DNA from: Candidatus Iainarchaeum sp.
GTDB lineage: Archaea; Iainarchaeota; Iainarchaeia; Iainarchaeales; 0-14-0-20-34-12
DNA: 32,000 nucleotides
NCBI GenBank assembly: GCA_030649345.1
Contig: JAUSKK010000051.1
Span: 1,249-33,248 of the forward strand
Reading direction: 5' to 3'
Shown: positions 6,773 to 32,000 of the stretch, piece after piece
Position numbering within the stretch: the stretch's first letter is position 1
Layout: each line of letters starts with the position of its first letter
Position numbers and translations under genes: made by a program
Notes under the pieces: generated by a model
The model's database searches: none
What the model was told of the DNA's origin: nothing
Seen by the model: only the letters and a program-made list of their open reading frames with translations

Positions 6773-7966
6773 ATGAAACTGTTTGAGTTTGAAGGAAAAC
6801 AATTATTTCAAAAATATAAAATTAGTATTCCCATGAGTACTGTTTTTTCCAAGGAAGTAAAAATAAATTTACTGGAATTCAAGCAAGGATATGCTGTGAA
6901 AGCTCAAGTAACTGCAGGCAAACGCGGAGTTTCCGGCGGCGTGGTATTAACTCATTCAAAAATTGAAGCTGAACAAGCAGTGCACGAATTATTTTCTAAA
7001 AAAATTCATGGCTTTCCAGTTGAACATGTATTGGTAGAAGAAAAACAGAATATTGAGTGCATGTATTATTTTTCAATTACGTATGATACTGTAGAAAAAT
7101 GTCCGGTTTTGTCTTTTTCAAAAAATGGCGGAATTGATATTGAAAAAATGGTTGACTTATACAGACTAGATATTCCTATTGAATATAATTCTAAACAAGT
7201 TTTAGATTGGCTGAATTCTATTGGTTTACAGAAAGTGAATTTAAGTGATTTAGAACAACTGATTTGTCAAGCATTTACTTGTTTTTTAGAAGAAGATTTA
7301 CGAGTCTTAGAAATCAATCCATTGGTTTTTTCACAAGAACAAAAATGGATTGCGTGTGATTCCAAAATTTTAACAGACGATGATGCTCAGTTTCGACACA
7401 AAGAAAGAATTTTTCCGTCAAGGAATGAGTTTGGAAAAATTCCAACCATTCGAGAATTGCAAGCTAAAGAAATTGACCAAGATGATTATCGAGGAGTAGG
7501 TGGAAAGTATACTGAATTGACTGGCAATATTGCTATGTTGACTGCTGGCGGTGGTGCTAGTTTAACGAATATGGATGCTTTGTTAGCGTATGGTGGAAAG
7601 CCTGCGAATTATACTGAATATGGGGGTAATCCTCCACAAGAAAAAGTCTATAAGTTAACAAAAGTTATCTTATCTAAACCTGGTTTGGTGGGTTGTTGGC
7701 ATGTAGGTGGAACTGCAAATAATACTCAAATTGATGTCACAATGAAAGGTTTTGCTTTAGCTTTAGAGGAAATTAAGCCAGAGTATCCGATTGTGGTTCG
7801 AAGAGATGGACCAAATTCAAGTGAAGGTTTTAGAATTTTAGAAGAAACTGCTAAAAAATTAAAATTGAATTTGAAATGGTTTGACAAAAATATGCCTATG
7901 ACTGAGAGTGCAGAAGTGTTAATGAAAATGGTTAAAGAGTATCAAAAAAAGAAAGGATTGAATTAG
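6773..7966 (+). CDS. ccsA: ATP-grasp beta-type subunit of citryl-CoA synthetase / ATP-citrate lyase family
   Basis: The N-terminus is SucC-like (MKLFEFEGKQLF). The C-terminal half carries motifs I associate with ACL rather than SucC. These are LTAGGGAS, PANYTEYGGNPPQEKVYKLTKVIL, GGTANNTQIDVTMKGF and IVVRRDGPNSSEGFRIL (compare ACLY AGGGASV, ANYGEYSGAP, GGSIANFTNV, VRRGGPNYQEG). Confidence 0.7.
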   Translation: MKLFEFEGKQLFQKYKISIPMSTVFSKEVKINLLEFKQGYAVKAQVTAGKRGVSGGVVLTHSKIEAEQAVHELFSKKIHGFPVEHVLVEEKQNIECMYYFSITYDTVEKCPVLSFSKNGGIDIEKMVDLYRLDIPIEYNSKQVLDWLNSIGLQKVNLSDLEQLICQAFTCFLEEDLRVLEINPLVFSQEQKWIACDSKILTDDDAQFRHKERIFPSRNEFGKIPTIRELQAKEIDQDDYRGVGGKYTELTGNIAMLTAGGGASLTNMDALLAYGGKPANYTEYGGNPPQEKVYKLTKVILSKPGLVGCWHVGGTANNTQIDVTMKGFALALEEIKPEYPIVVRRDGPNSSEGFRILEETAKKLKLNLKWFDKNMPMTESAEVLMKMVKEYQKKKGLN

Positions 7967-7967
7967 T

Positions 7968-8858
7968 ATGAGTATTTTGGTTGGAAAAGGTTCCCGAATT
8001 TTAATTCAAGGAATTACTGGAAGAGAAGCTTCTATGATTTTGCCGGATATGTTAAAATATGGTTCGAAGGTTTTAGCTGGAGTAACTCCAGGAAAAGGCG
8101 GACAAACCATTCAAGGAATTCCTGTGTATGATTCTGTTAAAGAAGCTTTGGATATTCATTCAGAAATTAATACTTCTTTGGTTTATGTTCCTCCGTTTGC
8201 TGCAAAACAAGCATGCATGGAGGCTTTAGATAATGGAATTCATTTATTGAATGTTGTAACTGAACGAGTACCTGTACGCGATAGTTGGGCGATTATTAAG
8301 AAAGCCAAAGAACTGAATGCTCGAGTTATTGGTCCAACTTCTTTGGGAATTATTTCTCCAGGCAAATGTAAGCTGGGTCCAATTGGAGGAAATGATCCTA
8401 GTTCAGTGTATCAAGAAGGTTCAATTGGTGTAATGTCTAAAAGTGGGGGTATGACTACTGAGACTTCTTGGGTTTTGCGTTTGAATGATTTTGGTCAAAG
8501 CACTGCAGTTGGTTTGGGCGGCGATGTATTAATGGGTTCTATGTTTACAGACTTGTTGCCTTTGTTTAATGAAGACCAGCAAACCAAGGCTATTGTAATA
8601 TTCGGAGAATTGGGTGGCTTGCAAGAGAATGCTGTGGCAGAATATGTAAAACACTTTGGCCAGCCTAAGCCCATTGTTGCTTTTATTGCTGGAAAGTTTT
8701 CAGAACACTTGCCTCAAGCCATTTTTGGTCATGCCGGTGCCATTATCCAAGGCGGTAAAGATTCACCACATGAAAAAATTAAAGAATTAGAAACTGCAGG
8801 AATACGCGTTGCAAAAGTACATCACGAGATAGGGGAAATATTGAAGGAAGTTTTATAA
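7968..8858 (+). CDS. ccsB: CoA-binding alpha-type subunit of citryl-CoA (or succinyl-CoA) synthetase
   Basis: SucD-like throughout: MSIL..., GVTPGKGG, SKSGGMT. Phosphohistidine loop FGHAGAIIQGGK. The start is 1 nt after the upstream gene's stop. Confidence 0.7.
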   Translation: MSILVGKGSRILIQGITGREASMILPDMLKYGSKVLAGVTPGKGGQTIQGIPVYDSVKEALDIHSEINTSLVYVPPFAAKQACMEALDNGIHLLNVVTERVPVRDSWAIIKKAKELNARVIGPTSLGIISPGKCKLGPIGGNDPSSVYQEGSIGVMSKSGGMTTETSWVLRLNDFGQSTAVGLGGDVLMGSMFTDLLPLFNEDQQTKAIVIFGELGGLQENAVAEYVKHFGQPKPIVAFIAGKFSEHLPQAIFGHAGAIIQGGKDSPHEKIKELETAGIRVAKVHHEIGEILKEVL

Positions 8859-9570: not shown

Positions 9571-9990
9571 ATGAGTCACTTAATATATTTAGATACTGGC
9601 ATATTCATTGGATTTTTACTAAAAGAAAGCCCAGAATACAGATCTTGTAAAGAAATAATTACTGCAATCAGAGAACAAAAACAAAAAGTACTTTTTTCAG
9701 TCTTAAATATTTCTGAAGTATTTTATATTCTGCAACGAGAACATGTAAGTACAGATAGAATTAGAAAAGCTATTGAAGAATTAGCAAAACTACCTTATGT
9801 TACACTAATTGAAGTACCTATTAAAATTGAACTAAATGCGCTTAAAATTGCAGAAAAATATAATATTGACTTAACCGATGCAACAACCTATTTGCTAATG
9901 AAAGAAAACAAAATAAAATTCATTTATGCTTTAGACAAACATTACGACCGATTCAAAGACCTTCAAAGGCTAACTGAATTAAAATATTAG
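9571..9990 (+). CDS. PIN-domain (VapC-like) ribonuclease toxin
   Basis: IYLDTGIFIGFL N-terminal acidic motif. Later NISEV, DLTDATTYLL and ALDKHYDRF supply the other conserved acidic positions. GGTGA SD upstream. Confidence 0.7.
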   Translation: MSHLIYLDTGIFIGFLLKESPEYRSCKEIITAIREQKQKVLFSVLNISEVFYILQREHVSTDRIRKAIEELAKLPYVTLIEVPIKIELNALKIAEKYNIDLTDATTYLLMKENKIKFIYALDKHYDRFKDLQRLTELKY

Positions 9991-10048: not shown

Positions 10049-11326
10049 ATGAAACAATTTTTCATTATTGGAACTTTACTTGTTTTATTAATTGCTGGAT
10101 GCACTACCCCAATTCAAGTACCTGGAAACAATGATGAACCAGAACCAGTTATTACCGAAAAACCAGTTCTAGATGACAGCCAAGCTACAATTGAAGGAGT
10201 TAACCAAATTGTACAAGGTAATAGTCAATTTGGATTCAATCTATATTCTAAATTACCTCAAGATTCAAGCAATGTATTCTTTTCACCGTATAGTATTAGC
10301 ACAGCCATTGCTATGGCTTATGAAGGAGCACAAGAACAAACAGCTCAAGAAATACAAACAGTATTCGGTTTCCCAGTAGACAATTCAGTTTTACGTTCCG
10401 CAAATGCAAGTATTTACAATAAATACAATAAAAAAGATTTGAATTACATTTTGTCTACAGCCAATGCTTTATGGGTGCAACAAGATTATACTTTGTTAGA
10501 TAATTACAAAAATGTTGCCCAAAATTCTTACGGCGGAAAAGCAAGCAATGTAGACTTTGTTAACCAAACTGAACAAACAAGGCAAACTATTAATTCATGG
10601 GTTGAAAATGAAACTTATGGAAAAATCAAAAATTTATTCGGGCCAGGAAGTTTAACTCCAGATTATCGTTTGGTTATCACAAACGCAATTTATTTTAAAG
10701 GAAAATGGAAAGAAAAATTCAACGAAGAATCCACGGAAAATCAAGACTTTACTTTAGCCAATGGAAGTAAAGTACAAGTTCCAATGATGAGACAATTTAA
10801 TGAAGATTTTAGATATGCTGAAACCAATGAATGGAAAGCGCTTGAAATGGATTACGAAGGAAACGATTTATCTATGTTAATTTTATTGCCCAAAGAAAAT
10901 AATCTAACTGAACTTGAACAAAATTTAACTCTAGAATCTGTAAAAAATTTAAAAGAACAAATGAGCTATGAAACAACCAATGTATTTTTTCCAAGATTTA
11001 AATTCAATACAAAATATTCACTCAATGATTCTTTAGGCCAATTGGGAATGCCGACTGCGTTTTCAAATGCTGCTAATTTTTCAGGAATTACAGGTTCTCA
11101 AGACTTAAAAATTGGAATTGTAATTCACCAAGCATTTGTGGAAGTCAATGAAAAAGGAACTGAAGCAGCTGCAGCTACCGGGATAGGATTTGAATTAACC
11201 TCTGCTCCATTTGAACCGGAAGAACCTAAAGAATTCAAAGCAGACCATCCATTTATTTTCGTTATTCAAGACACAGAAACAGGCAATATTTTGTTTATGG
11301 GAAAAGTCAATAATCCTTTAAATTAA
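10049..11326 (+). CDS. Serpin with lipoprotein-type signal peptide
   Basis: Lipobox LLIAGC (Cys18). Serpin core motifs FFSPYSISTAIAMAY and NAIYFKGKW. Inhibitory-type hinge EKGTEAAAATG (about nt 11150-11218). C-terminal signature FKADHPFIFVIQD...GNILFMGKVNNP. Confidence 0.9.
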   Translation: MKQFFIIGTLLVLLIAGCTTPIQVPGNNDEPEPVITEKPVLDDSQATIEGVNQIVQGNSQFGFNLYSKLPQDSSNVFFSPYSISTAIAMAYEGAQEQTAQEIQTVFGFPVDNSVLRSANASIYNKYNKKDLNYILSTANALWVQQDYTLLDNYKNVAQNSYGGKASNVDFVNQTEQTRQTINSWVENETYGKIKNLFGPGSLTPDYRLVITNAIYFKGKWKEKFNEESTENQDFTLANGSKVQVPMMRQFNEDFRYAETNEWKALEMDYEGNDLSMLILLPKENNLTELEQNLTLESVKNLKEQMSYETTNVFFPRFKFNTKYSLNDSLGQLGMPTAFSNAANFSGITGSQDLKIGIVIHQAFVEVNEKGTEAAAATGIGFELTSAPFEPEEPKEFKADHPFIFVIQDTETGNILFMGKVNNPLN

Positions 11327-12129: not shown

Positions 12130-12855
12130 ATGAAATTTGTTACAGAAATTGGTTACAGCAGTCCAAAAAAAACCATTGTACGCGGACATGACATTCAAGA
12201 CTTAGTGAAAAATAATACGTTTACAGAAGGAATTTTTTTAACCTGGCAAGGAAGATTACCCAATGAAAAAGAACGAAAAATGCTAGATGCTATTCTGGTT
12301 TCCTGCATGGAACATGGACCCAATGCACCCACTATTTTGAGTTCCAGAATTGTAGCCAGTGCAGGTAATTCATTGAATGCCAGTGTAGCTGCCGGAGTAT
12401 TAAGTGTCGGAGAACATCATGGTGGAGCCATTGAACAATGTGCTAAACTTTTTCAAGAACAAATAAACCAAACTGGAAAACAAATTGTGAAAGAATTTGA
12501 AGAAAAGAAAAAACGAATCCCTGGATATGGTCATAAAATTTACACCACAGATCCTAGGACAGTTCAATTATTGGAAATAGCACAAAAACTTGGATTCTTT
12601 GGAAAGTTTGTAAAATTAAGTTTAGAAATTGAAAAAGAATTAGAAACTTTAAAAGGAAAAAAACTATGCTTGAATGTAGATGGATGTATTGCTGCCTTGA
12701 TGAGTGAATTAGGCTTTAGCTGGCAGTATGGCAAAGGTTTTTTCATTATTAGCAGAACCACTGGAATTATTGCGCATGCAGTTGAAGAAACTGTCAAAGA
12801 AAAGCCTTTCAGGAGATTGGATGAATCTGAAGTCGAATATATCGGCAAAAAATGA
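12130..12855 (+). CDS. ccl: Citryl-CoA lyase (stand-alone citrate-synthase-like domain)
   Basis: 241 aa covering only the catalytic part of the citrate synthase fold: SCMEHGPNAPT, VGEHHGGAIE, IPGYGHKIYTT.DPR, LNVDGCIAAL. The size and motifs fit Ccl or the ACL C-terminal domain, not a full citrate synthase. Confidence 0.7.
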   Translation: MKFVTEIGYSSPKKTIVRGHDIQDLVKNNTFTEGIFLTWQGRLPNEKERKMLDAILVSCMEHGPNAPTILSSRIVASAGNSLNASVAAGVLSVGEHHGGAIEQCAKLFQEQINQTGKQIVKEFEEKKKRIPGYGHKIYTTDPRTVQLLEIAQKLGFFGKFVKLSLEIEKELETLKGKKLCLNVDGCIAALMSELGFSWQYGKGFFIISRTTGIIAHAVEETVKEKPFRRLDESEVEYIGKK

Positions 12856-24360: not shown

Positions 24361-25413
24361 ATGCGAAAACCTGTTTCCAGAAGACCTAGCGCAAAAGTTC
24401 ATCGAATTGCAAGAATGGTAATTTTAGGTAGTTTAGCTGGAGCTAATTTAGGACCACATTCAGCAAAACCTTCAACTCCAGTTGTACAGCGTGCAGGAAG
24501 ATTAAGACACGATGCATTTTTGCAAGAACAACTGAAAGCCAGGTCGCGTGGAATTGAAAAAGTACGAAAAGAAGAAGCACGCAAAAAAGCAGAAGAATTA
24601 GAACGACAAAGATTGGAAGAAGTTCGAATAAAAAAAGAAGCAGAAGAAAGAATTGCACGAAAAGAAAAATGGCAAAAAAGTTTGGAAACATTAAAACGGG
24701 TTACACTGCAAATAAGACGTACGCGAATTTCCAGCAGATTTATGCGACAAAATTTGTCTAAATTTAAAAAATATTTAGATGAAAATGCAAGAGCATTGCA
24801 TAAAAAAATGCGAAAACATGAATGGGAAACTGGCGGGGTAGTTTTAATCGAACGTGGAAAAGTAAAAATGATTGATTTACCGGATCCAGAAGATACAAAA
24901 ATACGCGGATGGTTAGCAGAATTAAAGAAAGGGAATCTAACTAATTTTTCAGATATTCGTACAGCGATTCTGGAAAGATTTGAACGAGAAAAAGTAGGGG
25001 CTAGACCCAGTATTCAAATTGAAGTAGATGCAGATATTGAGGAAGCCCATCAGATTCAAAAAGAACTTGCTGAAGAAAGAAATGGGAAACCTGTTTCAAA
25101 AAATAGAAGAAAATCTATTTTGGATTTTTTAAAATACCATTTAGATATTGTTGGCCGGCATAGTTACAGTGGGTTGGCCAATAATTACTTAATTGATGAA
25201 GCCTATGCTTCTGCTTTTGATGAACAATCCGACAGTAGATATTTTGGAAGCTGGCATGTGCATACTCTTGGAAGCCCAGCCAGTAAACAAGATATTCAAG
25301 GAAGTACTGCATGGGGCCCTAAAATTGTTTTTTCACCTACTCGAACCGGAATGAAAGTGCATATTCTTCAATTAGGTCGAGTAACGAATACCTACACGTA
25401 TACTTTTAGATAA
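24361..25413 (+). CDS. Orphan protein: basic leader, weak hydrophobic segment, E/R/K-rich helix, C-terminal domain with HxH...S..D motif
   Basis: 1053-nt ORF starting 5 nt after the membrane-protein stop. N-terminus MRKPVSRRPSAKVHRIARMVILGSLAGANLG. aa 58-106 (nt 24532-24678) are almost only E/R/K/A/L. WHVHTLGSPASKQD lies at nt 25252-25293. Confidence 0.6.
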   Translation: MRKPVSRRPSAKVHRIARMVILGSLAGANLGPHSAKPSTPVVQRAGRLRHDAFLQEQLKARSRGIEKVRKEEARKKAEELERQRLEEVRIKKEAEERIARKEKWQKSLETLKRVTLQIRRTRISSRFMRQNLSKFKKYLDENARALHKKMRKHEWETGGVVLIERGKVKMIDLPDPEDTKIRGWLAELKKGNLTNFSDIRTAILERFEREKVGARPSIQIEVDADIEEAHQIQKELAEERNGKPVSKNRRKSILDFLKYHLDIVGRHSYSGLANNYLIDEAYASAFDEQSDSRYFGSWHVHTLGSPASKQDIQGSTAWGPKIVFSPTRTGMKVHILQLGRVTNTYTYTFR

Positions 25414-25503: not shown

Positions 25504-25800
25504 ATGAAAGGTTATGCAATTGAAAAAGTTGAAAATGGAAAGTTAGTCAAAATTAAAGTAGATTTTGATGAACGCATTAATTCAATTCAAATCTTGGGAG
25601 ACTTTTTCTTGCATCCCGAAGAATCCATTTTTGAAATGGAAAAACAACTCAAAGGAATTCCGTCCAGTCAAAGTCAGGAATCGATTCAGTTGATTTTAGA
25701 AAATTATTTGAAAACAAGTCATGCCAAATTAATTGGAATGACTGCAGAAGCAATTGCACGCACTGTAAAAAAGGCAATGAATGAAGGTGTTCAAAAATGA
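25504..25800 (+). CDS. lplB: Lipoate-protein ligase accessory (C-terminal domain) subunit
   Basis: 98 aa. GKLVKIKVDFDERINSIQILGDFFLHPEES matches the stand-alone LplA C-terminal domain known from Thermoplasma. Its stop overlaps the lplA ATG (ATGA). Confidence 0.75.
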   Translation: MKGYAIEKVENGKLVKIKVDFDERINSIQILGDFFLHPEESIFEMEKQLKGIPSSQSQESIQLILENYLKTSHAKLIGMTAEAIARTVKKAMNEGVQK

Positions 25801-26549
25801 CTTGGCGTGTCGTAAAACTAGAAGAACATTCAGCTGAATTAAATATGGCAATCGATGAAGCTGTTTGTGAATTTGTTGCAAACGGAAAATCTAAAGCAAC
25901 TATTCGTTTCTATAAATGGAAACCGAGTGCAGTCAGTATTGGATATTTTCAAAGCTTAGAAGATGAGGTTGACGTACGATTATGCAAAGATTTAGGATTT
26001 GATTTTGTTCGAAGAAGAACTGGCGGCGGAGCAGTCTATCATGACGCTAAAGGAGAAATAACATACAGTGTAATTGCTCCTGAAAAAATTTTCCCAAAAG
26101 GAATTACGGAAAGTTATCATGTAATTTGCGGATGGATTGTGGATTCATTAAACGAGCTGGGAATCACTGCAGAGTTTAAGCCTATTAATGACATTATTAC
26201 ACATGGAAAAAAGATTTCTGGAAATGCTCAAACAAGAAGAAACGGAGTACTATTACAGCACGGTACTATCTTGTATGATTTAGATGTAGAAACCATGTTT
26301 CGCTTGTTAAAAGTTCCTAAAGAAAAAATCTCCGATAAAATGATCTCCGATGTCAAACAAAGAGTCACTAGTATTCGAGATATTAAAGGAGATTCTGTTT
26401 CTGAAATGAATGTTGCAGCTGCATTGGAAAAAGGATTCACAAATGGGAAAGAATTTGAGTATGGGAAATGGACCAAAGAAGAACTTGTACGAGCACATGA
26501 ATTGGTTAAAGAAAGATATTCTAAACAAGAATGGAATTTCATGCGATAA
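25797..26549 (+). CDS. lplA: Lipoate-protein ligase A catalytic (N-terminal domain) subunit
   Basis: NMAIDEA, IRFYKW.PSAVSIGYFQ, RRRTGGGAVYHD, and KISGNAQ with the lipoyl-AMP-binding Lys. 250 aa, so the C-terminal domain is absent. Confidence 0.85.
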   Translation: MTWRVVKLEEHSAELNMAIDEAVCEFVANGKSKATIRFYKWKPSAVSIGYFQSLEDEVDVRLCKDLGFDFVRRRTGGGAVYHDAKGEITYSVIAPEKIFPKGITESYHVICGWIVDSLNELGITAEFKPINDIITHGKKISGNAQTRRNGVLLQHGTILYDLDVETMFRLLKVPKEKISDKMISDVKQRVTSIRDIKGDSVSEMNVAAALEKGFTNGKEFEYGKWTKEELVRAHELVKERYSKQEWNFMR

Positions 26550-26590
26550 ATACTGAAAAGCTTTTAAAGAACAAAACAAAGAATACTTGT

Positions 26591-26902
26591 ATGCCTTTAC
26601 CTATTAAACGAAGACCTAAATTGCGAGTTGTTCAATTTCATGAAATGGATCGAGAACAAGCTAGAGCTGATTTGCGCAGACGAATTGATTTAATGAATCA
26701 AGTAGGCAAACATTTATTGCCGGAAGTTCGGTTAGTGAATGCATTAACTGAACTTAGGATAGGCAATTTGGATCCTCAAGTGATTGCTGCTTTACGATCT
26801 CTTGCAAAAAATGGAACACGAAATCAGCAAGCAAGAGCACGAAAGGCATTGGGTAAATTTAAACTAGGCAAAAGACAAGTTTCCAAAGAAGGACATGCTT
26901 AA
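26591..26902 (+). CDS. Small orphan protein: basic leader plus HEAT-like repeat
   Basis: I place the start at Met21 of ORF 26531..26902, which avoids overlap with lplA. N-terminus MPLPIKRRPKLRVV. EVRLVNALTELRIGNLDPQVIAALRSLAKNGTRNQQARARKALGKF resembles PBS-lyase-type HEAT repeats. Confidence 0.5.
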   Translation: MPLPIKRRPKLRVVQFHEMDREQARADLRRRIDLMNQVGKHLLPEVRLVNALTELRIGNLDPQVIAALRSLAKNGTRNQQARARKALGKFKLGKRQVSKEGHA

Positions 26903-26939: not shown

Positions 26940-27698
26940 ATGCCTAAACATGGAGTCATTTCAAGTTTACGGAGAAAAAAACCAGGTGAACGTGGATATG
27001 AGCACACGGTTAAATTAAGAAAACAATTAAAAGAAGATTTACGGTTGGCACGTAGATTGCATAATCCAAACAATGAGTCATACGGCCAGCTTGGAACAAA
27101 CTATAGGCGTCTTAGGCTAATGTTCAAAGCACATTTTGAAGAATTTTTAGCAAGAAAAAAAAGGCAAGTCAGAGAAGAACGAACACATAATTCAAATGCC
27201 AAACTCAGATGGCTGGATATTGGCCCAGGTTTACCGGAAAATTTTTTGTCTGATTTTGATAAAATAGATCCATCCAGACTATTGGTTGAATTTCATACTT
27301 TAGGCCCTCAAGCAGTTAATCCCAAACGAAAACCTGAAATGCGAATGCGGGAAATTAAATTAAGCGAAGGGAGAACAGAACAAATTCGGAGACACGAATT
27401 AAATCCAGACTATAATCCATTGTTTACTCATCACGTAGGCGCTATTGAAACCTATGATCCCAGAAAACTGGGCGGAAAATTTGATTGTATTGTGTCAACC
27501 GGAACTCTTTTTTATGGAAAACAAATTACCGAAGTTCTTCCCAAAATTTGCGATTTATTAAATCATCAAGGCCGTGCATTTTTACAAGTTGGATTTGATG
27601 TTCCTGCTTTGATTGAATTTTTAAGAACTAACCTTCCAGTAAATTATGAATTACGGCAATTTAATAAAACTTTTTTAATGATTGAACGAGTTCACTAA
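26940..27698 (+). CDS. Orphan class I methyltransferase-like protein with basic N-terminal leader (paralogue 1)
   Basis: LDIGPGL (motif I, as in KsgA/Erm EIGPGLG), FHTLGPQ (beta-2), HHVGAIETYDPRKLGGKFDCIVS (motif II region), LLNHQGRAFLQV (LLKPGG-like). Collinear with 29192..30013. Confidence 0.6.
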   Translation: MPKHGVISSLRRKKPGERGYEHTVKLRKQLKEDLRLARRLHNPNNESYGQLGTNYRRLRLMFKAHFEEFLARKKRQVREERTHNSNAKLRWLDIGPGLPENFLSDFDKIDPSRLLVEFHTLGPQAVNPKRKPEMRMREIKLSEGRTEQIRRHELNPDYNPLFTHHVGAIETYDPRKLGGKFDCIVSTGTLFYGKQITEVLPKICDLLNHQGRAFLQVGFDVPALIEFLRTNLPVNYELRQFNKTFLMIERVH

Positions 27699-27701
27699 GT
27701 A

Positions 27702-29129
27702 TTAGTGTTTCTTTTTGCCTTGGTGTACACATTTGCCTAAAGCATCTTCTGCTGCTTCCATAATGGCTTCCGGCATGGTTGGATGCGGATGAATTACTGA
27801 AGCTAAATCTTCTAATTGGGCAGCCATTTCAATAGCTAAAGCACATTCACTAATTAAGTCTGAAGCATGTTCGCCTACAATTTGGATTCCTAAAACAATT
27901 TGAGATTCTTGGTCAGCAACAATTTTTACAAAACCTTCTGTTTTATTCATGGTTAAAGCTCGACCTAAAGCTTTGAATGGAAACTTTCCAATAACTACAG
28001 TATATCCTTGCGCTTTGGCTTCATGTTCTTGCAATCCAACATAAGCAATTTCTGGATCTGTAAATACTACGGCTGGAACCACGTGATTATCAAAAGCAAC
28101 ATTATGGCCGGCAATCACTTCAGCTGCAATCTTTGCTTGCCTGGAAGCTTTATGCGCTAACATTGGATTTCCTGTAATGTCTCCAATGGCAAAAATTCGA
28201 TTATCGGTTGTTCTGCATTGTTCATTAATTATCATAAAACCTTTTTCATCCAATTGAACTTTAGTGGTGTCTAATTGAAGTCCTTCCGAGTAAGGTTTTC
28301 TTCCAACTGCAACCAAAACTTTTTCAACTTCGATTGAAAATTTTTCTCCTTTATTTTTTGGATTCACCGACAAAATAACTGAGTTGTCTTTTTTTTCACA
28401 TCCTTCAACAGCGGATTGTAGTAAAATTTTAACTCCATATTTTTCGAGTTGCTTTTGTAATGGCACAATTAATTCAGGGTCTGTACCCGGCAATAACTGG
28501 TCTCCTAATTCAATGATTGTAACTTTGCATCCAAGTTTAGCGTATACAATTCCTAATTCTAATCCAATGTATCCTCCGCCGACTACTGCCAAAGATTCTG
28601 GAGCATCGCGTAAAGCCAAAGCGCCTGTTGAACTTAAAATTTGGCGTTCATCAAATTTCATGAAAGGCAATTCAACTGGTTTAGAACCAGTGGCAATAAT
28701 ACAGTAATCAAATTCTACAGTTGCTACATTTTTGTCATTCGGAATTCCAAGAGTACGAGAATCTTTAAAGAATGCTTTTCCTTTCAATATTTCCACACCA
28801 TAATTTTTGCATAAAAAAGCAATTCCTTCAACCAATTTTTTGACTACATCTTTTTTCCAAGACTGCATTTTTTCAGTATCCAAAGAAACAGCTTGAGCAC
28901 TAATTCCAAAGAGTTGACTTTCTTCAATATTTCGAAAAAATGAGCTTGCGTGAATTAATGCTTTGCTGGGAATGCAGCCAACATTCAAACAAACTCCGCC
29001 CAATTCTGTGTCTTCAATTAAAATTACCGATTTACCTAATTGTGCTGCGCGTAAAGCTGCTACATATCCACCTGGGCCGGAGCCAATAATGGCTACATCG
29101 TATTTGACTGCAATATCACCCATCACCAT
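27702..29129 (-). CDS. lpdA: Dihydrolipoamide dehydrogenase (E3)
   Basis: DVAIIGSGPGGY, redox disulfide GGVCLNVGCIPSKAL, second dinucleotide fold VVGGGYIGLE, C-terminal interface HPHPTMPEA. Confidence 0.9.
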   Translation of the reverse strand: MVMGDIAVKYDVAIIGSGPGGYVAALRAAQLGKSVILIEDTELGGVCLNVGCIPSKALIHASSFFRNIEESQLFGISAQAVSLDTEKMQSWKKDVVKKLVEGIAFLCKNYGVEILKGKAFFKDSRTLGIPNDKNVATVEFDYCIIATGSKPVELPFMKFDERQILSSTGALALRDAPESLAVVGGGYIGLELGIVYAKLGCKVTIIELGDQLLPGTDPELIVPLQKQLEKYGVKILLQSAVEGCEKKDNSVILSVNPKNKGEKFSIEVEKVLVAVGRKPYSEGLQLDTTKVQLDEKGFMIINEQCRTTDNRIFAIGDITGNPMLAHKASRQAKIAAEVIAGHNVAFDNHVVPAVVFTDPEIAYVGLQEHEAKAQGYTVVIGKFPFKALGRALTMNKTEGFVKIVADQESQIVLGIQIVGEHASDLISECALAIEMAAQLEDLASVIHPHPTMPEAIMEAAEDALGKCVHQGKKKH

Positions 29130-29191
29130 GTTACATCACAATAAGTAATGTATATTATAAAGTTTGAATTTAAAATAGTAATTGATTGATT

Positions 29192-30013
29192 ATGCTCAAA
29201 AGACCTAGAATTCGACAGCCTGTGAATAAACGAATTGAAAAACAAAGAAAACGCGGAGTAATTCCAAGTTTGTATGGATTTTTTGACCGAAAATATTCAC
29301 ATTTAATTGATTCACCGCGAAAAAGATTGAAGGACAGTATTCGAATGGCCCGCAAACATCAAATGCCTACAGGCACGTATTACAGCACGGTTGGCGGACA
29401 TTATGCAAATATGGATCACTATTTTGGAAAACTATTTGAAAGCTTTATTCAAGGACAAATTAAATTAACTCAAGCACAAGGACTTAAGCCTGTGCGAATT
29501 TTAGATATTGGTCCAGGACTAACAGAACGTTTTATGCATGGCTTGCGTAGATTGGATCCAACTTTAAAGCATATGCAAATTCACACCATTTCTCCGGAGC
29601 AAATTAATCCAAAAACAAGAAGAACGCAAAATGTTCAAAGAGTTTTGACTTTAAGCAGTGGAGAAAGATTACCTGTCTTTGAACAAGAACCCAATCCAAA
29701 CTACGAAAAAAGATTAAGACACCATGTTCAAGCGATTGAAACAATTAATCCTAAAAAATTCAAACGAAAATTTGATGTAATTGTTTCAGTTTGGGGAGGT
29801 ACACGATATGCTATTGAACCAGTAACTGAAACTATTATTAAAGTCGCACGATTATTGAATCCGAAAGGCAAAGCATTTTTGCATACAGCTACATTGCGTC
29901 CTGCTGATTTAGAAATATTGGAAAAAGAATTGGGAAAAAATTATGACATAAAAATAACAGATGGATCGAGAAAAACATTTGCTACGGCAATTATTATTAC
30001 ACGAAAAAGATGA
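29192..30013 (+). CDS. Orphan class I methyltransferase-like protein with basic N-terminal leader (paralogue 2)
   Basis: The ORF opens at TTG 29186, and ATG 29192 gives MLKRPRIRQPVNKRIEKQRKRG. LDIGPGL, IHTISPEQ, HHVQAIETINPKKFKRKFDVIVS and LLNPKGKAFLHT are collinear with 26940..27698. Confidence 0.6.
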   Translation: MLKRPRIRQPVNKRIEKQRKRGVIPSLYGFFDRKYSHLIDSPRKRLKDSIRMARKHQMPTGTYYSTVGGHYANMDHYFGKLFESFIQGQIKLTQAQGLKPVRILDIGPGLTERFMHGLRRLDPTLKHMQIHTISPEQINPKTRRTQNVQRVLTLSSGERLPVFEQEPNPNYEKRLRHHVQAIETINPKKFKRKFDVIVSVWGGTRYAIEPVTETIIKVARLLNPKGKAFLHTATLRPADLEILEKELGKNYDIKITDGSRKTFATAIIITRKR

Positions 30014-30057
30014 TAAATTCAAAATGTTACGAAAAAGAATTACTGGAAAAAATAATC

Positions 30058-31335
30058 TTAAATTACGTCAACCAGCATTAGCCCAGGATCTTGCAAATAT
30101 TTAATGACGTCATTCAAGAAACGTGCTGCTTCTGCTCCGTCAATAATTCTGTGATCAAAGGTTACTGTCAAATTCATCATTTTGCGTACAACAATTTCGC
30201 TGTTGCGTACAACTGCTCGGTCTACAATTTTATAAATTCCTAAAATTCCAACTTCTGGATAATTCAATACAGGCGTAGCCATAATTCCGCCAGCTGAACC
30301 AATATTAGTAATTGTGAATGTTCCGCCATGCATGTCTTCTGGTTTTAGTTTTCGTTCTCTGGCTAAAGTTGCTTTTTCTTGAATTTCTTTAGCTAATTGT
30401 AAAATGCTTTTTTTGTCTGCATCTTTTAAAACAAAAACCATTAATCCTTCAGCAGTGTCTACAGCAATTCCTATATTGTAATATTTTTTCAAAACAATTT
30501 CTTTGGTTGTGTCATCTACACTGGCATTCAAAAAAGTATGATCTTTCAAGGAAGCAACCAAAGATTTGATAATAAAAGGCAAAAAAGTTAGTTTGACTCC
30601 GCGTTTTTCAGCATCTGCTTTTTGTCTTTCTCGTAAAATAACCAAGTCTGTTACATCGCATTCATCTAAATGAGTCACTTGCGGTGCAGTATACACAGAC
30701 TGAATCATATGGTCTGCAACTGCTTTTCGCACACCCTTAAATGGAATGCGTTCAACTGTTCCTTCGGTTTTTATTGCAACAGCTTTCATTTCTCTGGCTG
30801 GTTGAGTATGTGCAGTCATAGTTGTTGAGGTTGGCACAGAAGTTTTTGTTACTGGTTTTTCATTGGCTGCATTGGCTACATCTTCGTCTGTAATTCGTCC
30901 ACCTGGGCCAGTGCCTTGAATGTTTTCTAAATTAACATTTAATTCGCGTGCCAGTTTTCTTGTAGCTGGAGTTGCTAAAATTCTTCCAATCGATACAGTT
31001 GATTGTGCTTGTTGGACTGGCATAGGTGCAGTTTGTTTAATTGGTTGAGACTGAACATGAACTTGTGATTGTGCAGGTGTTGTTGGAACTTTTTCTCCAG
31101 TTTCTCCAAAAGTTACAATTACATTTCCTACTGTAATAATTTCTCCAGCTTTAGCGTGTAATTTTAAAATAGTTCCAGTTTTAGGGCTAGGAATTTCTAC
31201 AACTGCTTTATCGGTTTCTACTTCAGCTAAAGGCTGGTCTTCTTTAATAGAATCTCCTTCTTGAACCATCCATTTCAGCAAAGTTCCTTCATGGATTCCT
31301 TCACCTACATCTGGAAACTTAAATTCGTAAACCAT
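30058..31335 (-). CDS. Dihydrolipoamide acyltransferase (E2) of a 2-oxoacid dehydrogenase complex
   Basis: Lipoyl domain with VETDKAVVEIPSP, a Pro/Ala/Gln-rich linker, the subunit-binding domain ATPATRKLAREL, and the catalytic motif DHRIIDGA. Confidence 0.9.
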   Translation of the reverse strand: MVYEFKFPDVGEGIHEGTLLKWMVQEGDSIKEDQPLAEVETDKAVVEIPSPKTGTILKLHAKAGEIITVGNVIVTFGETGEKVPTTPAQSQVHVQSQPIKQTAPMPVQQAQSTVSIGRILATPATRKLARELNVNLENIQGTGPGGRITDEDVANAANEKPVTKTSVPTSTTMTAHTQPAREMKAVAIKTEGTVERIPFKGVRKAVADHMIQSVYTAPQVTHLDECDVTDLVILRERQKADAEKRGVKLTFLPFIIKSLVASLKDHTFLNASVDDTTKEIVLKKYYNIGIAVDTAEGLMVFVLKDADKKSILQLAKEIQEKATLARERKLKPEDMHGGTFTITNIGSAGGIMATPVLNYPEVGILGIYKIVDRAVVRNSEIVVRKMMNLTVTFDHRIIDGAEAARFLNDVIKYLQDPGLMLVDVI

Positions 31336-31383
31336 AATAATCCTTGATACTGTTTTACTATTTTCACTAATTTATTATTTTTA

Positions 31384-32000
31384 CTAATAGTTCATTAATT
31401 CATTAATTGCTTTTCTTACTCTAAAACTATCTGGTAAATAATAATGTTCGGATTTAGCATACGGGAAAGGAACATCTAAGCCTGTGACTCTTTTAGGTGG
31501 AGCTTGCAAACTCAAGAATGCTTTTTCGTTCACCATGGCAATTAATTCTGCAGCAAATCCTGCAATTTTTTGAGCTTCGTGTACAATTAATAATCTTCCA
31601 GTTTTTTGCACAGAATCTAAAACTGTTTTTCGATCCAAAGGAGCTAAAGTTCTTAAGTCAATTAATTCAATGGAATAATTTTGATTTTTTTCTTTCAATT
31701 CTTTTAATGCATCTAAACAAACTCTTGTCATTCCACCATAAGTTACTAAAGTTAAATCTGTTCCTTCTTGAATAATTTTTGCTTGGCCAATCGGAACTGT
31801 ATACAATTCTTCCGGCACTTCTTCTTTGAATGCTCTATAATATCTTTTAGGTTCCATGTAAATAACTGGATCAGGATCTCGAATAGCAGAAACCAATAAT
31901 CCTTTAGCATCCAAGGGATTGCTGGGAATTACAACTTTTAATCCAGCTGTATGAACATAATAAGTTTCAGGTGCTTCTGAATGATGTTCTAAGGCTTTAA
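31384..32000 (-). CDS. 2-oxoacid dehydrogenase E1 beta subunit, N-terminal part beyond the window
   Basis: The frame remains open to nt 32000 (reverse strand reads ...VHTAGLKVVIPSNPLDAKGLL). Transketolase-C-like domain with PIGQAKIIQEGTDLTLVTYG. Confidence 0.85.
   Translation of the reverse strand, partial: KALEHHSEAPETYYVHTAGLKVVIPSNPLDAKGLLVSAIRDPDPVIYMEPKRYYRAFKEEVPEELYTVPIGQAKIIQEGTDLTLVTYGGMTRVCLDALKELKEKNQNYSIELIDLRTLAPLDRKTVLDSVQKTGRLLIVHEAQKIAGFAAELIAMVNEKAFLSLQAPPKRVTGLDVPFPYAKSEHYYLPDSFRVRKAINELMNY

Follow-up and report, generated by a model that had tools for sequence, protein, structure and literature searches.

The gene for dihydrolipoamide dehydrogenase (lpd, the E3 component) in the Candidatus Iainarchaeum DNA studied here is bracketed by two related genes on the opposite strand, and it is of interest whether this arrangement reflects a functional link to the 2-oxoacid dehydrogenase (OADH) and lipoylation machinery, as a sequence-only reading of the locus had proposed, or rather the history of the locus. 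Based on the analysis of the whole stretch of 32,000 nucleotides (hereafter the window) and of related loci, we consider it probable that the two genes, here called A and B, are members of a methyltransferase-like family, most likely still active, which were placed around lpd by a lineage-specific rearrangement, and that they make up no functional module.

The gene lpd (27702..29129, minus strand) encodes 475 aa with Pfam matches to Pyr_redox_2 (E 5.6e-73) and Pyr_redox_dim (E 7.5e-40), and its product shares 51% identity with the E3 from an OADH cluster of Woesearchaeota. The same strand carries E2, the dihydrolipoamide acyltransferase (30058..31335, 425 aa; Pfam 2-oxoacid_dh, Biotin_lipoyl and E3_binding), and the 3' part of the E1 beta subunit gene (31384..32000), which continues past the window edge and was recognised by BLASTP to the E1beta ORFs of loci L008, L010 and L012. 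On the plus strand, a bipartite lipoate-protein ligase is encoded by lplB (LplA-C, 25504-25800; a sub-threshold match to Pfam Lip_prot_lig_C) and lplA (LplA-N, 25797-26549; Pfam LplA-B_cat, E 2.4e-56), which share a 4-nt overlap. They are followed by orf123 (26531..26902, plus strand), a very basic protein of 123 aa and pI 11.3 with no family assignment, and then by A (26940..27698, plus strand), the final gene of this tightly packed same-strand run. The stop of A ends at 27698 and that of lpd starts at 27702, so the gap is indeed 3 nt, as had been noted. B (29192..30013, plus strand, with an alternative TTG start at 29186) lies beyond the start of lpd at 29129, with a gap of 62 nt from its ATG or 56 nt from the TTG, and 44 nt lie between its stop at 30013 and the E2 stop at 30058; it does separate E2 from E3 on the opposite strand. 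This order is not a binning artefact, because a contig assembled independently from this sample (Logan L041, run SRR13727527, 4,535 bp) is 100% identical to positions 27469-32000 and shows the same succession of A 3' end, lpd, B, E2 and E1beta, with the E1beta gene call reaching the contig end. No Rfam family or tRNA gene was detected in the window.

A and B encode proteins of 252 aa (pI 10.0) and 273 aa (pI 10.6), and both are also annotated by NCBI (Q7S92_06925 and Q7S92_06935). In BLASTP, A (26940-27695) and B (29192-30010) align over 244 aa with 36% identity, 53% positives and 16 gap positions (E 4e-42), a similarity that excludes chance and agrees with the earlier description of a collinear pair about one-third identical. 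All motif pairs quoted in that description (LKEDLRLARR/LKDSIRMARK, LDIGPGL in both, NPDYN/NPNYE, HHVGAIET/HHVQAIET, KFDCIVS/KFDVIVS and LLNHQGRAFL/LLNPKGKAFL) are found in the alignment. The pair had also been called an ancient duplicate pair; paralogy stands, while a sister relationship is weakly supported, the A-B grouping having 16% bootstrap in a neighbour-joining tree and each of the two being as similar to family members of other genomes as to the other.

Both proteins are predicted to have a divergent class I SAM-methyltransferase fold. The AlphaFold2 model of A, built with a 25-sequence alignment, reaches pLDDT 91.4 and pTM 0.87 and supersedes a run with 4 sequences (pLDDT 67.8, weak Foldseek matches). 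Its predicted strands (89-94, 116-122, 162-166, 181-186, 207-216, 236-240 and 245-250) follow the order typical of class I methyltransferases, seven in number and ending in a beta6-beta7 hairpin. Foldseek against the PDB gives 259 hits at E<1e-3, and the best 50 are almost all methyltransferase entries with probability around 1.00; hhalign to a canonical methyltransferase gives 98% probability (E 2e-13). The motif order from which the fold had been proposed is thus well matched by model and profile comparison. At the level of sequence families the signal is weaker: Pfam Methyltransf_23 (PF13489) scores 24.4 bits with A and 17.5 bits with B, both below the gathering threshold of 27, while 19 of 25 family members match it at E<0.01 (best 7.3e-7). 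PDB sequence searches give weak methyltransferase matches (best E ~1e-3), NCBIfam, PHROGs and PADLOC give no meaningful match for the family, and NCBI gives one member the name 'class I SAM-dependent methyltransferase'.

With Methyltransf_23, Methyltransf_11 and Methyltransf_12 (PF13489, PF08241, PF08242) the family shares the predicted seven-stranded Rossmann-like fold and the motif order LDIGPG, probable post-I acid column, E170 after beta-3, FDxIVS and LLxxGGxAF. It differs from them in a Pro in the glycine loop, which is without the third Gly, in an invariant His-Thr/Ser after the probable beta-2 acid, in an added basic helical N-terminal extension of 80 aa, and in an optional beta-hairpin replacing helix B, besides the scores of A and B under the Pfam thresholds. 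The "~45-aa basic insertion" reported after beta-2 is present, although it is shorter (~30-40 aa); it is predicted as a beta-hairpin (residues 130-154) and is absent or far shorter in about half of the family.

Whether A and B still function as enzymes depends on the cofactor site, for which residues were counted in 24 core family members with the numbering of A. Motif I, canonically hh[D/E]hGxGxG, reads (R/K)(W/I/F)LD(I/V)GPG, with Asp/Glu in 24/24, Gly95 in 24/24 and Gly97 in 22/24, while its third Gly is not conserved. E170 after beta-3 and G211 of motif III, canonically LLxPGG, are both present in 24/24; in motif II, canonically FDxIxS, F181 is nearly invariant, and position 182 is Asp in 16/24 and His in 7. 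The acid at the end of beta-2, which binds the SAM ribose in canonical class I enzymes, had been described as replaced by Thr. However, hhalign and MAFFT place the canonical post-I Asp on E117, a column with Asp or Glu in 21 of 24 members, Gln in B, and Asn or Ala in two others, while HMMER against PDB 5doo places it instead on the invariant H119, whose column has Glu or Asp in 9 of 27 distant relatives. Of the three candidates, Thr120 has the weakest support, and the replacement is probably a misalignment.

These residues bear on the view that A and B are catalytically dead pseudo-methyltransferases, which have lost SAM binding and use the fold as a scaffold, for example as a basic RNA- or protein-binding module. 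The sub-threshold Pfam scores, the GPG form of motif I, the Gln of B at the probable post-I acid column and an anamorsin N-domain among the weak PDB sequence matches all point in this direction. So does the top Foldseek match by E-value (9.8e-7, TM-score 0.33), a fragment of human fatty acid synthase (PDB 5c37 and 6nna) which we take to contain an inactive pseudo-methyltransferase domain. That match is part of a multidomain protein, unlike A and B, and the A/B family, in contrast to it, retains the cofactor-binding signature residues. Although members are only 25-40% identical, they vary little or not at all in the glycine loop, the acid of motif I, Glu170 and the Gly of motif III, which is the pattern expected of a maintained cofactor site, and the probable post-I column stays acidic in all but three members. 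We therefore regard loss of the enzymatic function as unlikely. Judged from these residues, the family most likely still binds SAM and methylates some substrate; since its members have a high pI and a basic N-terminus, RNA or another acidic macromolecule would be our best guess for that substrate.

The family as a whole consists of proteins of about 250 aa with a median pI of 10 (range 8.6-11.1) and a Lys/Arg-rich, helical N-terminal extension, its named members coming from DPANN archaea (Diapherotrites and Micrarchaeota). Its detection required a full HMMER scan: word-index protein searches returned two relatives with A and none with B, and a 25-member profile mostly missed the family. Among 1.84 billion proteins, the full scan found 17 representatives at E<1e-30 and 24 at E<1e-10, and B itself scores 272 bits with the family HMM. 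A metagenome scan with a 4-sequence alignment gave four loci; a profile search of genome contigs with the family alignment gave no match. A third copy (Q7S92_05415) occurs in the same metagenome-assembled genome and adjoins unrelated genes, so this Candidatus Diapherotrites genome contains three or more members, A and B included, of a small, fast-diverging and strongly basic family. Tandem copies are found elsewhere, as a pair in locus L004 and as a triple in L034. Other family genes have varied neighbours, among them ThyX...PGK/GAPDH, pyr genes, Fic/HEPN, A-ATPase subunit D, AglB glycosylation genes and RadA. Comparison between loci showed no homology among the small ORFs that precede the family members.

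The OADH genes themselves belong to a conserved arrangement. An archaeal operon of E1alpha-E1beta-E2-E3 with the LplA-N/LplA-C ligase is described for the Thermoplasma acidophilum type, including the two-gene organisation of the lipoate ligase (PMC3904984), and it has the same gene set as the window, with lplB (LplA-C) overlapping lplA (LplA-N). Of the DPANN loci, the two whose lpd is closest, L008 (Woesearchaeota) and L012 (Nanoarchaeota), match the window cluster in content and orientation; both have contiguous E1beta-E2-E3 with E2 abutting E3, convergent with lplA-lplB, and from them we derive the ancestral cluster. Compared with the T. acidophilum type, the E3 of the window is severed from E2 by the opposite-strand gene B, and A and orf123 stand between E3 and lplA. 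In the clusters of L008 and L012, neither a family gene nor a homologue of orf123 was detected.

The proposal that A and B are dedicated accessory factors, which methylate or regulate E2, E3 or LplA, has to be judged against this comparison. It is suggested by the physical bracketing of lpd beside lplB-lplA, by the packing of A behind lplB-lplA-orf123, which would allow co-transcription, and by a weak profile match to the rickettsial protein-lysine methyltransferase 5doo (E 1.2e-3), although this match is no better than those to many unrelated methyltransferases. Homologues of E1, E2, E3 and LplA are absent from all 12 other non-redundant family loci (137 kb), the genome's own third copy has unrelated neighbours, and the related DPANN clusters do without any family member. 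Family genes thus occur at unrelated loci, relatives keep E2 and E3 contiguous, and the functional link suggested in the sequence-only reading is not borne out. Nothing ties A or B to the OADH complex, because the relatives show an insertion into a conserved cluster in this lineage only; synteny largely refutes the accessory role, which we regard as very improbable. A broader variant combines the two sides. It supposes a DPANN-specific, expanding family of basic SAM-methyltransferases with the unusual His-Thr cofactor-site signature, whose copies diversified across macromolecular targets, with one or both of A and B recruited to OADH or lipoylation proteins and A co-transcribed with lplB-lplA. 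To us this is likewise a rather remote prospect. Also to be weighed is that A and B were carried in by a mobile or viral element inserted twice around lpd. The family is multi-copy and patchily distributed, and some members lie near toxin-antitoxin, Fic and HEPN/NTase genes, as such an origin might predict. Yet the repeats detected around A and B are at chance level, apart from two that reflect their coding homology, with no terminal direct or inverted repeats flanking either gene, and no integrase or transposase is adjacent. A scan of viral contigs (IMG/VR) found no family member, and PHROG and PADLOC gave no matches. The spacers of 3-62 nt are too short to contain element ends, and A and B do not differ from the neighbouring genes in GC or GC3, so nothing points to a recent foreign origin. 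We find this origin barely credible.

The preferred reading, a lineage-specific rearrangement, is consistent with the following course. The ancestor would have had E1beta-E2-E3 convergent with lplA-lplB and E2 abutting E3, as kept in L008 and L012, and in the present lineage family genes came to flank E3 on both sides. The simplest route may have been a local segmental duplication of a unit of family gene plus lpd, after which the lpd copy nearer E2 would have been lost; alternatively, the two family genes may have inserted separately. The 44-nt spacer between B and E2 is such that duplication and loss leave no testable remnant in it. A duplication footprint had been the fallback of the sequence-only reading, and it is more plausible than the functional link.

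The importance of these results is limited on the whole. They add a Pfam-unassigned subfamily of class I methyltransferase-fold proteins which is multi-copy in DPANN archaea, and document a lineage-specific break in the archaeal E2-E3 operon. The locus is also a cautionary case, in which paralogues bracketing a metabolic gene resembled a functional module and comparative synteny pointed to local rearrangement. Should its members prove to be active methyltransferases of RNA or protein, diversifying through tandem duplication, the family could be of modest interest for the biology of DPANN archaea.

The rearrangement would also have a consequence for expression. With A and B on both sides of E3, and B splitting E2 from E3, lpd presumably needs a promoter of its own, which, together with that of B, would have to sit in the AT-rich divergent intergenic region of 62 nt (29130..29191). 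This had been anticipated for the 56-62 nt gap. In the region, TTTATAAT lies on the minus strand, its centre ~28 nt before the ATG of lpd, and TATATTATAAAG on the plus strand, its centre ~36 nt before the ATG of B, as possible parts of the candidate promoters of the two genes.

On the 34% GC contig, whose MAG is labelled Candidatus Diapherotrites archaeon, the gene layout taken from the ORF listing and Pfam runs lplB/LplA-C (25504-25800, +), lplA/LplA-N (25797-26549, +), orf123 (a 123-aa basic ORF from the ORF listing, 26531-26902, +), paralogue A (Q7S92_06925 in NCBI; 26940-27698, +), lpd/E3 (27702-29129, -), paralogue B (Q7S92_06935; 29192-30013, +), E2 (30058-31335, -) and E1beta (from 31384, -). 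A Logan contig from an independent assembly (run SRR13727527) has 100% identity to window 27469-32000, with identical order. The arrangement of A and B observed in the sequence-only reading is confirmed: they are full-length collinear paralogues (36% identity, E 4e-42), all the motif pairs quoted there are found in their alignment, and the gaps, 3 nt between A and lpd and 56-62 nt between lpd and B, are correct. Directly upstream of A, orf123 (pI 11.3) has a 19-nt overlap with the lplA stop; translation from an internal ATG at 26591 gives MPLPIKRRPK.... The ORF could be assigned to no family, and the corresponding clusters of Woesearchaeota and Nanoarchaeota yielded no homologue. Since B separates E2 from E3 and runs on the other strand, lpd cannot be transcribed by read-through from E2 unless antisense transcription crosses B. 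The 62-nt, AT-rich lpd-B spacer contains TTTATAAT, with its centre ~28 nt before the lpd ATG, as would suit an archaeal TATA box and a leaderless lpd mRNA, and TATATTATAAAG, with its centre ~36 nt before the B ATG; both are only suggestive, since a 34% GC genome gives such elements by chance.

The sequence-only reading also saw in A and B the motif order of a class I SAM-dependent methyltransferase, and the fold is borne out. The closest Pfam model, Methyltransf_23, matches A and B only below its threshold (24.4 and 17.5 bits, cutoff 27), and no curated family describing them was found in Pfam, NCBIfam, PHROGs or PADLOC, the last three giving nothing useful. When 1.84 billion representative proteins were scanned in full by HMMER with a profile of 4 sequences, 17 reached E<1e-30 and 24 reached E<1e-10. 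The members have ~245-285 aa and a pI of 8.6-11.1 (median 10), and share a basic N-terminus (consensus MP..E.RLEEIKA.QRKRGVIEPL.G) together with RWLDIGPG, (D/E)LHTLSPEQI, HHVGAIETY...KLGKFDxIVS, LL..GGKAF and a C-terminal ITR.K. The AlphaFold2 model from a 25-sequence alignment (pLDDT 91.4, pTM 0.87) has the class I methyltransferase strand layout, extended at the N-terminus by three helices (residues 20-82) and carrying an inserted beta-hairpin (130-154). Foldseek against the PDB gives 259 matches at E<1e-3, the best 50 of the 259 being almost all methyltransferase entries; the TM-scores are only 0.3-0.44, most likely due to the extension and the insert. The viral structure library gives matches chiefly to methyltransferases and capping enzymes, none of them a specific relative. 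Further, hhalign aligns the family to P0082, a canonical methyltransferase carrying five Pfam methyltransferase domains, with 98% probability (E 2e-13), Methyltransf_23 matches 19 of 25 members at E<0.01, and one member bears the NCBI name 'class I SAM-dependent methyltransferase [Candidatus Micrarchaeota archaeon]'. Because of these lines of evidence the predicted membership of the class I fold is well supported, the family being remote members of a superfamily like which they would work. An 'R..LA..IR.AR' helix at the N-terminus is common to a wider set of basic proteins of ~220-260 aa (P0029-P0068), along with a motif I of canonical form, LD(V/I)GCG, and with (H/E)G(L/I), HVG.(I/F)E.Y and KFDLIVS. 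The family of A and B would thus seem to form a single branch within a larger group of such small, basic, methyltransferase-like proteins.

Conservation of the cofactor site was counted over 24 core members, in the numbering of A. The motif I acid (Asp/Glu), Gly95, Glu170 (the acid after beta-3) and Gly211 of motif III are kept in 24/24, and Gly97 in 22/24. Selection appears to have kept these signature positions, a pattern that speaks for SAM still being bound. The earlier claim that Thr replaces the post-I acid does not hold up well, Thr120 being the least supported candidate, while the equivalent position differs among three alignments. By both hhalign and MAFFT the canonical Asp of P0082 aligns to E117 (Asp/Glu in 21/24, Gln in B, Asn or Ala in two others), which sits 18 residues past the nine-residue motif I block (WLDIGPGLP); Kagan and Clarke (1994) are said to give 17-19 residues as the usual motif I-to-post-I spacing. 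HMMER against PDB 5doo instead aligns the acid to the invariant His119, whose column has Glu/Asp in 9/27 distant relatives. The insertion described after beta-2 is present, but has ~30-40 aa rather than ~45, and about half of the family lacks it or has a short version. Because of the high pI and basic N-terminal extension, our best guess for the substrate would be RNA or another acidic macromolecule.

Archaea normally have the 2-oxoacid dehydrogenase (OADH) genes in one operon, E1alpha-E1beta-E2-E3, accompanied by a ligase in two parts, LplA-N and LplA-C (PMC3904984). Scanning the window lpd against GTDB species genomes gave 21 loci, of which the closest were analysed by an ORF and BLASTP script. 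In the two DPANN loci, L008 of Woesearchaeota (lpd 51% identical) and L012 of Nanoarchaeota (44%), E1beta, E2 and E3 follow one another without interruption on a single strand, with E2 abutting or overlapping E3, and a convergent lplA-lplB comes after E3; these clusters are the window cluster minus A, B and orf123. E2 overlaps E3 in the thaumarchaeal L011 too, and the family HMM has no match in the analysed lpd loci, these three included. From the contiguous E2-E3 without family genes in relatives, we infer that A and B are lineage-specific additions to a conserved cluster.

The loci of the family itself lie elsewhere. Members neighbour Fic, HEPN/NTase and ATPase_2 genes (P0002, L001), a ThyX ... 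VapBC ... PGK/GAPDH locus conserved inside one clade (P0003, P0009 and one more; L003, L030/L031, L040), pyrF/E/D/C in a locus of the same sample and GC as the window (P0007, L007), RadA, RPA, SRP54, eIF6 and ribosomal proteins (P0022, L036), and RadA with a primase-like Toprim (unnamed member, L037). Two tandem copies, 57% identical, occur in L004/L005/L006/L038 (P0005 and a second copy), and three beside trehalose and AglB glycosylation genes in L034 (P0012, P0011, P0014). The MAG that carries A and B has a third copy, P0016 (Q7S92_05415, L033), near HxlR, CDGSH, geranylgeranyl reductase and A-ATPase subunit D. Across 12 non-redundant family loci (137 kb) no homologue of E1beta, E2, E3, LplA or LplB was found, and IMG/VR contigs gave no family member. 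The proposed functional link to the OADH/lipoylation machinery is thus not supported, since relatives have family genes at unrelated loci and an intact contiguous E2-E3, which the sequence-only reading had named as evidence against it; the family is not a conserved accessory of this system. A convergent housekeeping gene is often tail-to-tail with the family gene with almost no spacer, as for A (26940-27698) and lpd (3 nt), P0007 (L007 702-1511) and pyrF (1 nt), P0016 (L033 4862-5722) and A-ATPase subunit D (4-nt overlap), and P0022 (L036 10001-10816) and a peptidase A24 gene (30 nt), which may simply reflect compact genomes.

The bracketing of lpd by A and B is a lineage-specific rearrangement. 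Local duplication by the family is clear from its tandem pairs and triple, and a tandem duplication of the segment X-lpd (X, a family gene), then deletion of the E2-proximal lpd copy, would give exactly lplA, X, lpd, X' (the second copy), E2, with the orientations as observed. No lpd remnant is apparent on reading the 44-nt B-E2 spacer. The alternative is two independent insertions around lpd. Independent events are unlikely, because there are only ~3-4 family copies in a small genome and two of them lie within 3 kb. A and B are each as similar to members from other genomes (40-41% identical) as to each other (37%), and they group in a neighbour-joining tree with a bootstrap of only 16%. As for a recent mobile-element insertion, no flanking repeats of A or B were found and their GC and GC3 match those of neighbouring genes, which argues against it. 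The finding is real but ordinary, namely a multi-copy DPANN methyltransferase-like family with two copies around lpd.

Several other genes of the window are noticeable. For two stand-alone PIN-domain genes (PIN_2, 23-409, +; PIN, 9571-9990, +), the scanned ORFs include no identified antitoxin partner. A very basic 350-aa ORF (24361-25413, +; pI 10.2) with a Lys/Glu/Arg-rich middle has no Pfam or PDB match; its C-terminal WHVHTLGSPASKQD is similar to the HxH...S..D motif of JAMM/JAB metalloproteases, and PADLOC JAB matches are weak only (E 0.011-0.019, aa 280-313). Succinyl-CoA-ligase-like beta (6773-8858, +; with a Pfam Citrate_bind domain) and alpha (12130-12855, +) subunits, both under the NCBIfam sucC/sucD cutoffs, and a citryl-CoA lyase passing its NCBIfam cutoff (281 bits vs 212) look like a two-step citrate-cleavage (CCS/CCL-type) set, and adjoin a class II fumarase (Lyase_1 and FumaraseC_C) and a succinate dehydrogenase/fumarate reductase flavoprotein. 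In addition, this DPANN archaeon has a full-length serpin (10049-11326, +; PF00079, E 3e-123).
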